In this document: positions 8,530 through 20,508 of the stretch, in pieces
Layout of the letters: every line of letters begins with the position of its first letter
Numbering within the stretch: position 1 is the stretch's first letter
Assembly: GCA_001244265.2 (NCBI GenBank)
Contig: CDLV01000008.1
Location: forward strand, 1,922,001 to 1,986,000
Length of the DNA: 64,000 nucleotides
Direction of reading: 5' to 3'
DNA from: Microbotryum violaceum
Taxonomy: Eukaryota
Translations under genes and position numbers: made by a program
Notes under the pieces: generated by a model
What the model saw: the letters and a program-made list of their open reading frames with translations, nothing else
What the model was told of the DNA's origin: nothing
Databases searched by the model: none

Positions 8530-10062
8530 CTTTGGCAGCGTTAATTTGTGTTGTGAAGATCTGAGATGGAGACACCGATCGCCATCGAGGCGGAGAGGAA
8601 ACAACGGCGTCATGATATGAAGAGTCAGTTGGTGTCACTCGAAGTCGTAGGCACTGCTGTGGGACAAGATCGCTGGCGAGTCGAAGTGGGACCCGGGCGG
8701 CGTCTGGCGCGGAAGGGAGCGCACACCCCCACATTTGGGGTCCCCACGTCAGCCTCCTCCGCCTGCGCCAATATCGATGTGGCGCAGGCTCAAAGGCAGT
8801 GGCCAGAGTAGACCCTGGGCTGCACGCTCGTCGGAAAATATTTTTTGGATGTTTGGGCCCATTAGAAGAGGTCTGCGCGGCCTAGTCACTCAATTCGAGT
8901 GTGGCGCATGACGTAGTCGCGTGACCCACTTCCGCCAACCGTGGCGCATTCGCCCGGGTTGCACGGCTTACGGCACGTGCCAAGGCTGTGTTGAGGAAGG
9001 GCCAAGTACCGCGAGGGCCCAGGCTTCGGGCGTGTGCACTCACTGGGTGGGGTGCGTGGGTGTGCGAGGGGAGCTTGGCAATGAGGGCAGGGGTGGATCT
9101 ATGATACGTGTGATGGGAGGAGGAAAAGCCACGGCGGCGCTAGCGGGGTGGACGCGTGCTTGTGAGGTCATGTGGGGCGAAGGGGGCGGCTTACTCGGCA
9201 CGACCGACGGACAGTGCATACACGCAGGTGCTGAATGTGCCTGAGCAACCATTGGCGGTGTCGTCCAGCTCAGGTAAACGCACGCAACACGCAGCACGTA
9301 GGCACAGTTACTTGAGTTCAAGTCTTTCATTAATTGCAGCCATCACGGATACCGGCGCACTCAGAGGCTAGGACGAATACTGGACCGGTCCGTGCTCGCG
9401 ATCGGCCGACAGCGCCCCAGAGTTCAGCGAACTACACGATCGCCACAAGTACTAGTTCATGATCGAGCAAGTGGGACTTGTTCCTCGCCCTCATTCTCCT
9501 CGAACCTCATAGACCCGATACCTGATGAGGTTGGTTGACTGTCTGAAAGATCAGCCCTTTTGCCCTTCCGCCCCTTCAGGCGTGACGCTGCTAGTCACCT
9601 ACACTCGAGTTTGCTGCAGGCCGATCAGCCGACGGAGAGGGTTTCCCTGCGGACGCGTGAGCAAGAGCCACTTCTTGTGGCATGAAGATCGGAGACAGCA
9701 GGAGCGGTATACCTTCCCCGTGCTCCGATCTAGACATCCAGATCGAGGAGTCACTTGAGGCACGCGCGGGAGGGTATTCCCTGCAGTTTTACCCCGTTTT
9801 GCCAATCACGAGCGTCATAAAACCCAGCCGCGCATGTCGGGTTTTAGGACGCGCCGCCGTTTTCCCCGCCGCTGCCGTAAAACCCCCGCGAGGTCCGATC
9901 GAGGTTTTATGAGACCAGAGGGTTTTTTACCCAAGACGGCGATCATTTTCCCTCACAATTGTCATACAACCATCGTGTCTACCAGTGTTGAGATTATGTA
10001 CACCTTTGGGTGATTCAAACGTCTTCATTATATTACATTGTTAAAAGACAACCGCAATGATG

Positions 10063-12666
10063 TCACATGCTATCATCACTGTCGTCAAACACGGCTTGTG
10101 CGATGCCAATCGGTCGATCAAAGCAGAAGTACCAAACGTTGGCGGGCCCGACGTCCACACCGGTCGTGAAACTAGAATCTAGCTTTCGGTGCAGTCGGCC
10201 AGCGACTGTCAGCACCTGTTGAACAGGCACTGCCTCCAGTGGACCTTGTTTCTTGTAGCGGTAAAGGTTGTGGAAGTGCTGGGCATTTTCCGGTCCGACC
10301 GCGACCAAGCCGTCCGCCTGCCGCACCACAACGACGGTGTGCTGATTCCCAAGAATTGTAAGTTTGGAGTCGGGCACGCTGGTCAGCCAAAGTCATGTTT
10401 CGGGCGAGACGGAGAAGCATATTTACCTCTGTTTCTCCATGCACCGGGTGCGCTAGATTGAACCGATAAAACTCCAGTGCTTCTCCGTAAAATTTGTGCT
10501 CGACCCCAACAAATGGCCGACTGCGATTGCGACTGCGACGCGCATCTTCGTCCACAAAGAGAGTATACTACCCGGGGCAAGCGGGGAACACAGCTCAGCA
10601 ATCGCAACGAGTTTCCTGATGATCCTGACGATCCACTGACCGATATCCACGAGCAATCGCGCCTGGTAGTGCGCACCGCGAAAGCCTCTCGGCGAGATGG
10701 GCCCCGGGGCGACGGTTGGCTAGATTCGACGATCCGGCTTCCATTCAATATGGCAGTGTAGGCAACCGTCAACTCCTTTGGTAGCAGTTTTCTGGCCGCG
10801 GCGAGCTGTGACATGGGCCATCATATCAATGAGAATGCCACCATGAAAGCACCTGATGAGAAGCCCTTCAGACAAGATTTTGGTACATACCGTCCTTTCG
10901 ACGGGCTCAAGGGCGTATGTACAATTGATGTAGGTGATCAGAAGCTTCTTGACATGCACACTCAGTTTCTCTTGCTGAATTGTTTTGGCGCCGACAAGCT
11001 CGCAGCCTTCCATCGCCTCAGGCTCAGCCTGCCCGTCACCAAGTGACTGTTCGACCTGGGGGCCAGGTTGCTCCAATTTGTTCCCAGAGGGTACTTTCCT
11101 CTTGGAAGCGGGATAGAACACTTCCGGGTACCTCGCAGCGATTGACTTCATTGCGTTATCCACCATGATGCCTACCGCACGTCCATTTGTGAGAAAGATT
11201 GAATTCATCAGCCTCAGCCTGAGTTCGCATCTGCTCAACCAGCGGGAGGGGTCACTTACCACGCATGATAGCGGAGTAGGGTAATTTCCTGGTAGAAGAG
11301 AAGTCAGTCTCTTGACGTGTTGATTTTATCGCTCGATCACGAAGCACCAAGTCGAACATGGTGGACCATGCCACAAAATAAAATCCGCAATGTGCAGGAC
11401 GGCATGAGAGGAAATACGGAAATATCTTCAGATGAGCCGGCCGTCCGTTGTAGTAAACCCTGTCATATAAGACCTTGAGCAGCTCAGAAAGGGCTCGATT
11501 GGTTCGGTGGCAAAGGAATCTGCTATAAAGAAATACTTTCATCATATTCCATTAAACTTCTAAAAATCCGTTTCATTTTTATTTGGCAGCACGGTTTGGA
11601 GCTAAGTACACAGAAATAAATCTCAGAATAATAAAATAATAAATACAAAAATATCGCATTTGAGGCTGTTAAATTGGCCACCTCATAGACTCATCTGCCC
11701 ATAGGGTAAAACGTACAACGTCCGCCTGCTCACCTTTCAAATTCCAGGTACCACTCGTTGATCTCGCCCGGAGCTTGCCTCCGGGCAGGACATCGGCTTT
11801 CTGGATCTCCAGCGCCATGCACGTGCTGACCCAACTTGAGAGATGTTTGAAGTGCTCGAAGTAAATGGCCGGGAGACGACCACAGAGAACGCTAGGGCCA
11901 ACGAACAAGATCTCGACCAGTCCTCGGCGGTCATCTGAGATTGGGTCCGAGCAATATTGGGCATGGCTCGAAGAAATTGGTGCGGGGTCTTTGCCGCACA
12001 AGCCTTCATCTCGAGCCCGATTTCCTCCCAGCCGTTATCGCCAATGACCCAGGGATCAGGTTCCAAGCCCTGCGCGACTCGAGCAGCGGTATCTTCTTTT
12101 GAGGGGTGCCATAGGTTGACAAGTCGCTTGGCAATGTTCTCGAACGCTGCATGCATGAAGTCCAATGCTCCGTCTTTGTGAAACCCAAATCCAGGAATGA
12201 AAGCTATGCGGGCGAGGCCGTTCATTCCCATGTCCGGGTCCTTGAAGAGTCGTGCGCGGCCCGTAGTGACTTCCCAGGCAATTTTACGGATGGACTCTTC
12301 CGATCGCATCGGCAGATCATCGACCTGAAGATCTGGTCGATCGGGATCGGGTGGTACTCCAGTGACGTTCTTCATTGGGTAATAGTTCTTCCGGCCTTTG
12401 GGCCCTGTGATGCCCTTGATGGTGCAGACCCTGCACGGCCATTTCGAATTCGGTCCTTTGAATCCAAGAACCTTGGAGATTCCTGGACCGTCACCGCCCA
12501 CAAATTGAATGTACCAACGTTGTCGTACAGAGCTCTGACAAGGGGAAAAGACAAATATACTGAGTCAGTCATTTCGCATCGCACTTTGCTTCTAGACCCG
12601 ATCAAGTGAACTCACCTCAGCGTAACGATTGAATACCACATGGCCCATCTCTGCGGAGCGCCGCGC
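10063..12666 (-). pseudogene. CACTA/Tnp2-like transposase, 3' part (5' part lost), frameshifted; left copy
   Basis: GGDGPGISKVLGFKGPNSKWPCRVC, LDFMHAAFENIAKRLVNLW, TPHQFLRAMPNI..MTAEDW, RVYYNGR motifs resemble fungal CMC-EnSpm transposases. Interrupted at 12667 by a gypsy LTR. Confidence 0.75.
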
Positions 12667-19080: not shown

Positions 19081-20508
19081 CATCATTGCGGTTGTCTTTT
19101 AACAATGTAATATAATGAAGACGTTTGAATCACCCAAAGGTGTACATAATCTCAACACTGGTAGACACGATGGTTGTATGACAATTGTGAGGGAAAATGA
19201 TCGCCGTCTTGGGTAAAAAACCCTCTGGTCTCATAAAACCTCGATCGGACCTCGCGGGGGTTTTACGGCAGCGGCGGGGAAAACGGCGGCGCGTCCTAAA
19301 ACCCGACATGCGCGGCTGGGTTTTATGACGCTCGTGATTGGCAAAACGGGGTAAAACTGCAGGGAATACCCTCCCGCGCGTGCCTCAAGTGGGTGGCAAC
19401 CCTGAGTAACGCGCGCAAAACATGGGAATCGCGTCACCTCCAGGAGCTTGCGTCTATGATGCATGTCACATCGCTGCCTCTTCTAGCGCGACTGGTCCGT
19501 ACAAAGCGACAGGTGCGCACTGCTACGTGATCCAATCAATTATGGTGTATATATGGACTGACTTGTAATTACGGTAACATCAGGAAGCAGCAATGAGGGC
19601 ACAGGTTAGTAGGATATAATATACTCACGGGAGCTAGACTGCGTCGAATATTGAATTTGGCTCTTATATTCTCTAGGAAGAGTTTGGTGAACCTGGTCTC
19701 GTCTCGAGCGATTCAGGGGCGGAATCCGAGGATGATGACGATGAGGAGCCTCTGGACCAAGCCACTCGCGCCGCGCTTCTAGACGAGATGATGTACGACT
19801 AAGAATGTGTGTGTGTCTGACTTCTCGCCCACCTTTGAATGATGCGGTGGCGTATAACCCTGTGCTGGCCACAGACCCCTGAATCGTTCCCGGGCCCCAT
19901 TAGAGCGGTCTTTGTAGTCGCTTCCTAGCTGTGAAATCGTAAATATCTCAAATGATTATGTCAAGTAGCGTGATTGAGTGTAGCTGAAGTATGCAACCGC
20001 AGTAGCTACTACAGCAATCAATTGCGGTTACTGCTGCACTATTCAAAGATTACTTCCTGGCCTAATGAGATGCCAAAACCCCGCTAATGCCCAATTGCGG
20101 TCCATTTCATTTAAGTCGCCAAATTTGGGGGGATACCCTGCTGCGGCTCGGGCCAAGCACCTTGGGTATTCCCCGAGGAAGGATGGGGAATACCTCACTC
20201 TGCGAGCGGGGGTTTTACTCTGGCGCCTTGGGTAAAATCGCGCTGGGGTTTTACCCCTCCGCGCGTGCCCCTAGTGAGTCCTAGATTTTGAGGCCTGCGC
20301 GAAATACAAGGGCCATCAACGACGCTGGGCCCCAAATGTCCAACTCACTGGCTCAGGGGCTAGCAAAAGGACCGAGCACCGCGGCTCCTTTCGCACAATG
20401 ACGACGGGTCATTCAACTCGAGCCCGCCGACGCCCTTAGCTCTCAGCTCAGTCGCGCACTTTCGTACACCTTACATCTACCACAAAGATAACTGATCCTA
20501 CAATCCCC

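Follow-up and report, generated by a model that had tools for sequence, protein, structure and literature searches.

Mu killer (Muk) and the Ac killers, all of maize, are the described systems closest to the locus presented here. Muk holds two copies of the same terminal inverted repeat (TIR) together with an inverted partial transposase gene, as described in part of PMC3440606. The Ac killers, in the partial accounts drawn on here, are built from a single Ac end in inverted repeat, with the broken ends fused at the centre of the locus, originate from alternative transposition between sister chromatids and aborted re-replication, and give rise to double-stranded RNA (dsRNA) and small interfering RNAs (siRNAs). 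A comparable locus is found in Microbotryum violaceum, in a stretch of 64,000 nucleotides (assembly GCA_001244265.2, contig CDLV01000008.1, positions 1,922,001 to 1,986,000; hereafter the window, numbered from its first letter). There, a palindrome at 9752-19391, with a fragment of a Ty3/gypsy retrotransposon at its centre, lies within one CACTA element. To judge from its sequence, this locus belongs structurally to the killer class, being an inverted duplication in which the same transposon terminus occurs twice in inverted orientation, and the comparison with Mu killer made in an earlier first-pass annotation of the window is structurally apt. Its anatomy, nesting and fold, and the support by copy number in independent sequencing runs, are established. 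The best explanation as a whole, to which a probability of about 0.5 is given, is a real palindrome, probably a by-product of transposon activity and DNA repair, with the build of a killer locus able to feed RNA interference (RNAi).

The palindrome is present in the assembled sequence. In a base-by-base walk its arms (9752-14376 and 14767-19391, 4625 nt each) form an exact inverted repeat around a spacer of 390 nt (14377-14766); a repeat search reports them as three adjoining perfect segments, and self-BLAST aligns 14761-19391 with 14382-9752 at 99.914% identity over 4632 nt. The gap of 378 nt given by the repeat search, compared with the spacer of 390 nt, is due to a match that had been extended over 2 mismatches. 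The arm and spacer lengths of the first-pass annotation agree with the walk, and both single-base homopolymer differences that it had noticed between the arms were found, at left 11112 (GGG left versus GG right) and at left 11770/right 17374 (CCC left versus CCCC right). These are the only positions at which the arms differ in the walk.

Public sequencing runs bear on these differences. Twenty runs from 7 studies contain part of the stretch, all as assembled contigs, and four of them were compared with positions 7800-14900: X1, X7 and X14 (DNA by guess, from three studies and under three organism labels) and X17 (RNA by guess). This comparison lists 32 contig pieces, with 277 more pieces and 38 more loose ends beyond them. 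An extra C behind 11766 is found in contigs of all four runs, and 11112 has no row in the corresponding table; both differences therefore look like, and probably are, consensus under-calls of the shorter homopolymer in the assembly, the true arms being probably identical. An RNA of 990 nt across the centre has a predicted folding energy of -810.6 kcal/mol, versus -364 +/- 10 in 20 shuffles (z = -43), and a transcript crossing the centre would form a perfect hairpin, as had been proposed from the sequence.

The outer ends of the palindrome correspond to a CACTA terminus, which the first description of the locus, correct in its arms and spacer, had not recognized. Each arm starts with the left terminus CACTTGAGGCACGCG, found on the plus strand at 9752, and CACTAGGGGCACGCG, at 20262-20276 on the minus strand, is a third terminus in the opposite orientation to the 9752 end. 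The ends at 9752 and 20276 align over ~23 nt as TIRs, and they share the subterminal motifs GGGTATTCCC (at 9772, 20129, 20164, and 20186) and GTTTTACCCC (at 9786 and 20248), both of which are also present at the mirror positions of the right arm. In addition, the 3-bp target duplication AGT, of the size typical for the CACTA superfamily, is found on both sides of 9752-20276. The CACT termini, the aligned ends, the shared motifs and the duplication therefore argue that the palindrome sits within one CACTA element; the extent of 9752-19391 originally given holds for the palindrome, and the enclosing element runs on to 20276. The count of the terminus 15-mer by itself (3 found versus 2.41 expected) has no significance, while by our own estimate the chance of finding a terminus that has up to 2 mismatches, is correctly oriented, and is flanked by the matching 3 bp is ~0.001. 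Two other ways of delimiting a mobile unit were rejected. The palindrome did not move as one transposon, since 9752-19391 is flanked by AGT and GGT with no shared target duplication, and it is not a Foldback (FB-type) transposon, given the same flanks and arms with no direct or tandem repeat families.

The transposase content of this element is partial. A 275-aa minus-strand open reading frame (ORF) at 11737-12564 is 97% identical to the 685-aa protein P0121 of M. silenes-dioicae, which carries PF02992 (Transposase_21). By tblastn, residues 496-685 of P0121 fall on 12666-12009 (minus strand) and on the mirror at 16477-17134, residues 1-495 are found nowhere in the 64-kb window, and 19392-20276 has no transposase homology. 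Pfam detects no transposase domain in the outer-arm ORFs, even at E up to 10, which is why the family was assigned through the homologue; leads from a protein atlas for the arm ORFs point to Plavaka and Transposase_21 clusters, with scores of 0.93-0.97. By descent, then, the fragment in the arms appears to be a member of the Transposase_21 family and non-autonomous. The CACTA transposase that the first-pass annotation had placed in the arms is accordingly present as a match to the Transposase_21 C-terminus, limited to the last 190 residues and the 3' region. At 19391/19392, the exact second copy of the left terminus adjoins a site in the interior of the element, 885 nt away from its right end.

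The transposase alignment ends exactly at 12666, where a Ty3/gypsy long terminal repeat (LTR) begins, so that the gene is interrupted at residue 496. The two LTRs that had been described as facing the centre are borne out by their TG..CA ends and by the mirror copy, and the left one is 77% identical (self-BLAST) to a solo LTR at 33725-33975, behind which there is no retroelement coding homology. Bins of X1 that contain the LTR have 28-34x the flank depth, and internal parts of the retroelement have ~8-13x, which corresponds to a family of about 8-10 internal copies and about 30 LTRs. Behind the LTR, the ORF 13133-13936 gives weak matches to Retrotrans_gag (E = 0.069) and DUF5577 (E = 0.00025), and residues 141-246 of the ORF 14009-14872 match RVP_2, Asp_protease_2, and gag-asp_proteas in Pfam. 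The order typical of gypsy elements is found, with a TG..CA LTR, a weak gag, and a protease directly before the reverse transcriptase (RT), the last two being colinear on the plus strand. The retroelement sequence ends after the start of RT, with no RNase H and no integrase, and the second LTR is inverted, not direct; the nested retroelement is a fragment and not a complete element. An in-frame TAA lies at 14870-14872, the first base of which is C in an X14 contig.

With regard to the state of this retroelement copy, comparison of 12765-14870 with the multi-copy family contigs shows mostly T/A where the family has C/G. Nine of 14 such C-to-T or G-to-A sites are CpG in the family sequence, although the one at 14870, which makes the stop, is not. 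The excess of T/A at CpG is in line with reports that repeats undergo CpG hypermutation in this genus.

The centre of the palindrome was dissected by blastx, with the protease-RT (PR-RT) ORF of the window's other Ty3/gypsy element (39995-45852), which is intact and has a chromodomain, as reference (matches in the table). The protease and RT matches are colinear on the plus strand, and the spacer together with the first 524 nt of the right arm (14767-15290) is therefore one native protease-to-RT stretch, the innermost 524 nt of the left arm being an inverted copy of the start of RT. Hence, the inner part of the arms in the first description is to be read as the start of RT, with the right copy as the native one. 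Contigs of all four runs cross 14766/14767 without a break, at depths of 512.6 versus a flank depth of 55.5 in X1 and 197.3 versus 25.1 in X14; read at about 8-9x flank depth, this point is therefore ordinary multi-copy family sequence. Conversely, family contigs diverge from the window at 13855-13858 rightward, at 13853 leftward, and at 14393 leftward: those reaching 14376 continue into the reverse complement of 14766, those from 14393 on are preceded by other letters, and those covering 13853 onward have other sequence before it. The junctions at about 13852/13853 (with its mirror 15290/15291) and at 14376-14393 are therefore specific to the locus, as is 19391/19392. An opposite assignment, with 14766/14767 as the novel junction and 14376/14377 as native because the ORF 14009-14872 spans the latter, was reversed by the blastx matches and the contigs.

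Table. Predicted features of the palindrome, of the CACTA element that encloses it and of the retroelement fragment nested in its arms (positions in the window).
Feature	Position	Strand	Evidence
Left target-site duplication AGT	9749-9751		Directly precedes 9752
Non-autonomous CACTA (Transposase_21 family) element enclosing the whole palindrome	9752-20276	- (transposase)	Termini, TIRs, subterminal motifs, target-site duplication
Left arm, outer part: CACTA 3' part with C-terminal transposase exons	9752-12666	-	Homologue alignment, depth
197-nt insertion of a high-copy small repeat, A+T-rich	11524-11720, mirror about 17423-17620		In both arms here
Ty3/gypsy LTR, 243 nt, TG..CA, in the transposase gene, pointing at the centre	12667-12909	+	Ends, similarity, depth
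gag 5' part of the nested retroelement	13133-13852	+	Weak profile matches
Inverted copy of the RT-start region, innermost left arm	13853-14376	-	blastx, family contigs
blastx match to PR-RT ORF residues 293-375 (mirror)	14129-13854	-	
Filler of about 9-16 nt between 14376 and 14393, the second junction specific to the locus	14377-14392		Contig divergence
Protease-coding part, hairpin loop	14393-14766	+	Pfam, blastx
blastx match to PR-RT ORF residues 47-159 (protease)	14390-14746	+	
Native protease-to-RT-start continuation, innermost right arm	14767-15290	+	blastx, contigs
blastx match to PR-RT ORF residues 255-366 (start of RT)	14885-15262	+	
Mirror of the gag 5' part and LTR (LTR 16234-16476)	15291-16476	-	Inverted-repeat match
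Right arm, outer part: inverted CACTA 3' part ending in the second left terminus	16477-19391	+	Repeat match, tblastn, termini
CACTA 5'-terminal 885 nt with right TIR and subterminal motifs	19392-20276	-	Termini, target-site duplication, motifs
Right target-site duplication AGT	20277-20279		Directly behind 20276

Independent runs support the outer structure of the locus. In all three DNA runs, the contig from the left flank ends exactly at 9781, 30 nt into the arm (X1, 7800-9781, with 0 differences; X14, 7800-9781, with 3 differences; X7, 9454-9781), and the arm contigs in X1 and X14 start exactly at 9752, a break that is expected if the arm has two different left-hand neighbours. The depth of the CACTA arm relative to the flank is 2.65x in X1, 2.09x in X14, and ~1.7-3.4x in X7. 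With the left-flank junction confirmed, the break at 9752, and an arm depth of about twice the flank, an artefact covering the whole palindrome is therefore unlikely. Such an artefact would consist of one real arm and a long-read fold-back or chimera, and the identity of the arms except for homopolymer errors would agree with it, chimeras being a known artefact of long-read libraries. However, a single arm is at odds with the depths of X1, X14, and X7, and with the break at 9752, which indicates at least two left-hand contexts. Moreover, a spacer of 390 nt with filler is found where a fold-back would have none, an independent homopolymer error is present in each arm, and the right arm ends on its outer side in an exact transposon terminus within an element with an intact target duplication, which a random chimera would not give. 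A fold-back or chimera is thus regarded as highly improbable.

The arms are also variable among runs. Contigs of all four runs skip 11524-11720, the 197-nt insertion that both arms hold in the window, and X14 does so at twice the flank depth. Pieces of this insertion are high-copy, with a depth of 1741 in the X1 bin 11355-11591 versus a flank depth of 55.5. Neither copy has the insertion in X14; X1 and X7 contain both forms. An intron was ruled out as the reason for the skip, which is seen in DNA runs and has the ends TA..CG. Within the CACTA part, X14 differs from the window at full twofold depth by at least six single letters (10511, 10519, 10679, 11754, 11756, and 12469), by a 1-nt gap (11412), and by the lack of the insertion. 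The arms may have been homogenised by gene conversion after a split of lineages; alternatively, X1 and X7 may be mixed or heterozygous samples in which each allele has uniform arms. Under either explanation, arms are identical within a genome and genomes differ, which is a hint of concerted evolution of the arms, provided that X14 has the same palindrome. The palindrome structure seems to be kept in several strains, with two arm haplotypes, one of them without the 197-nt insertion.

The order of events that we infer for the origin of the palindrome has four steps. A CACTA (Transposase_21) element would have entered an AGT site, and a Ty3/gypsy element would then have landed in its transposase gene. 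In a third step, a junction made by transposase would have put a second, inverted left end at the internal site 19391/19392, a reaction that is proposed because an exact transposon terminus is joined there to a new site. This could have happened if a copy of the gypsy-bearing CACTA element, inversely oriented, inserted into the element itself, as in a double Ds, or by alternative transposition of the ends of sister chromatids with aborted re-replication; the two routes are indistinguishable because the partner junction with the second target duplication is lost. Finally, the long inverted copies would have been shortened at the centre by breakage and repair. One deletion may have fused gag (13852, on the other strand) with the RT piece at its end (15290), and a break in the loop may have been repaired by copying the opposite arm across that junction, followed by end-joining at 14376-14393. 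A deletion followed by this type of repair would produce the mirror-image pair of junctions that is seen.

Regarding its possible function, an RNA started from either LTR would contain the LTR, gag, RT, the protease loop of 390 nt, and then the reverse complement, forming up to ~1.7 kb of perfect duplex, and the RNAs of the two LTRs would also be complementary to one another. The stem of gag and RT with a protease-coding loop is as first described. Dicer and Argonaute would turn this duplex into siRNAs against the gypsy family of the palindrome. The intact gypsy element of the window has 26-33% protein identity with the palindrome retroelement (blastx) and is not expected to be targeted. The CACTA part of 2.9 kb would be added only by transcription that runs through the inverted LTR or enters from outside, and the siRNAs from it would cover the last 190 transposase residues and the 3' region. 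The retention of RNAi genes, on which the proposal had been made to depend, has support at the level of the genus, as one Dicer, two Argonautes and one RNA-dependent RNA polymerase, all expressed, are reported for M. lychnidis-dioicae in the part of Perlin et al. 2015 (PMC4469406) that was drawn upon.

Several points weigh against the reading of the locus as a real palindrome able to feed RNAi, some of which concern its centre. The locus-specific junctions at ~13852/13853 and 14376-14393 are spanned by none of the 32 contig pieces listed, and all listed contigs follow the family sequence at both places, 14376/14377 included. The evidence for the central junctions is the assembly itself, that for 19391/19392 consists of the twofold depth and the break of contigs at 9752, which only imply it, and a twofold arm depth also fits two separate copies of the element. 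On the other hand, short-read contigs drop rare links between high-copy nodes, and a missing span is no proof of absence. A related alternative is that the arms are real and the centre is mis-assembled, with inverted CACTA-plus-gypsy copies whose longer or different middle was collapsed through multi-copy sequence. The sequence at the centre, present at about 8-10 copies per genome, would favour such a collapse, as would the absence of both junctions from the contig pieces listed for four runs and the mirror-image pair of junctions, which is an unusual product. Nevertheless, an assembler does not invent a junction of gag with inverted RT and a 16-nt filler without reads, the independent homopolymer errors indicate that each arm was built from its own reads, and the loss of single-copy links between high-copy nodes is routine in short-read contigs. 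A mis-assembled centre is considered improbable.

The remaining points concern transcription and RNAi. The RNAi gene set is that published for a single Microbotryum species, and none of the 20 runs that contain part of the stretch is on record as RNA, X17 to X20 being RNA by guess. Over the CACTA part, the contigs of X17 are without the 197-nt insertion and show differences at 11 of 780 positions, and therefore need not stem from the palindrome locus. Contigs show no strand, level or locus of origin, and the bins left uncovered in this run (8748-9221 and 9696-9932) carry no weight. Transcription of the palindrome, promoter activity of the LTRs, siRNAs and silencing are thus features that we infer. 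Furthermore, a literature search found no small-RNA study of Microbotryum, and a limited one found no description of a natural killer-type locus in a fungus, which is no proof of absence. In part of a review (PMC9757828), natural long hairpin RNAs of fungi are considered to still need exploration.

There is a further alternative, in which the palindrome is real and inert transposon debris in a silenced nest, with no transcription across its centre, no meaningful siRNA and no effect on its families, and in which the identity of the arms comes from recency or from arm-to-arm gene conversion and not from selection. The in-frame stop and the excess of C-to-T and G-to-A changes at CpG (9 of 14 sites), as in a decaying and possibly methylated copy, would agree with it, as would the fact that no run containing the stretch is recorded as RNA. 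Another inverted duplication, in a transposon nest of the window (35504-36319 versus 45928-46742), likewise suggests that such structures recur without needing a function. Against an inert locus, two complete LTRs face the centre, the gypsy family is multi-copy, and the structure seems to be kept in several strains. In addition, weak transcription of a perfect stem of at least 1.5 kb usually gives siRNAs where RNAi is present, as a matter of general knowledge and as partial accounts of Muk and the Ac killers illustrate. Inert debris is a possible, if somewhat unlikely, description of the locus, and if never transcribed the palindrome would be well-dissected transposon debris.

A stronger version of the killer-locus proposal would have a fungal killer locus directed against two superfamilies, Ty3/gypsy and CACTA, born from aberrant CACTA transposition and kept across strains by gene conversion. 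It is quite doubtful at present; if true, it would mean that the hairpin itself, and not coding content, is preserved. Beyond this possibility, how genomes first recognise an active transposon is largely an open question, and the same build in a basidiomycete from a genus with RNAi genes, with putative inward-facing promoters of its own and a stem of two transposon families, would allow that question to be put to the test in a fungus with a small genome. The palindrome is, in addition, a case in which the shaping of transposon nests by palindrome repair and by junctions due to transposase can be followed in detail, and it may exemplify how gene conversion keeps arms identical in a fungus whose repeats undergo CpG hypermutation.

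The surroundings of the palindrome include a second transposon nest. The left copy of its inverted duplication (816 nt, 99.88% identity, one single-base gap), at 35504-36319, belongs to a minus-strand copia-type element and corresponds to the RNase H end; this element has RVT_2 in the ORF 35720-37336, integrase and gag parts up to ~39990, and no LTR pair in the window. The right copy (45928-46742) adjoins a truncated retroelement leader at about 45928. Between two identical LTRs of 300 nt (39995-40294 and 45553-45852), the Ty3/gypsy element at 39995-45852 codes for gag, protease, RT, RNase H, integrase, and a chromodomain, spread over several ORFs that overlap or are shifted in frame. The 77 nt behind its 5' LTR are repeated at 45853-45929, as the start of a tandem second copy that is ended by the inverted copia fragment. 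A perfect direct repeat of 53 nt (42782-42834 and 43087-43139) in its RT region, between the ORFs that split RVT_1, represents a minor duplication or insertion within the element. The window shows no other homology to gypsy or copia coding sequence beyond the two nests. Housekeeping genes flank them—a PGAP2IP/CWH43-like gene, a replication factor C subunit, malic enzyme, and GINS Psf1, in the stretches 2-2147, 24877-26017, 28239-30179, and 54426-55328—and the nests therefore lie in gene-bearing DNA instead of a stretch of repeats alone. Among named matches to the malic enzyme ORF (28239-30179), the one from Microbotryum intermedium has 84% identity, and those that follow, from other Microbotryomycetes, reach at most 69%; together with the 97% match of the transposase ORF to M. 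silenes-dioicae, this places the window in a Microbotryum species. The G+C content of the window is similar to the 55.4% given for the M. lychnidis-dioicae genome in the part of PMC4469406 consulted.

Four known systems resemble this locus in different respects. The palindromes of the primate Y chromosome, whose arms are kept identical by arm-to-arm gene conversion, share with it arms that are identical within a genome and different between genomes. The palindrome described here is far smaller and holds transposons instead of genes, and the evidence for it is at the level of contigs, with heterozygosity of X1 and X7 as an alternative. In double Ds, a Ds element is inserted in inverted orientation into a copy of itself, and this inverted self-nesting gives an exact terminus at an internal site, as at 19391/19392. 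However, both copies are complete in double Ds, whereas the Microbotryum locus has lost the greater part of each and has a rearranged centre.

The Ac killers p1-ww-id1/Ack1 and p1-ww-id4, in the partial accounts available, have in common with this locus one transposon end that is inverted-repeated, exact termini, and an irregular fused centre, and they are transcribed from a flanking promoter or from their own into dsRNA and siRNAs. They differ in being derived from a hAT element with 8-bp duplications and in having flanking duplications of 0.3-3.2 Mb. In the Microbotryum locus, in contrast, the extra end targets the same element, no host DNA is duplicated, a second transposon family is part of the stem, and alternative transposition is a candidate route of origin.

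Like the Microbotryum locus, Muk derives from a DNA transposon that has lost part of its sequence, has one terminus present twice in inverted orientation, and holds two partial transposase copies that meet in an inverted duplication (in part of PMC3440606); a kilobase-scale hairpin RNA is proposed for both. Despite these similarities, both loci exhibit clear differences. Muk belongs to the Mutator superfamily and to a plant, whereas the locus described here is a CACTA/Transposase_21 derivative of a basidiomycete; it retains a third, opposite terminus, with the palindrome nested inside the element, and its centre is retrotransposon sequence with its own putative inward-facing LTR promoters. The duplicated part of the transposase gene is the 3' end here and the 5' end in Muk. 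Finally, transcripts, siRNAs, and silencing have been demonstrated for Muk, while its counterpart in Microbotryum is known from its sequence.

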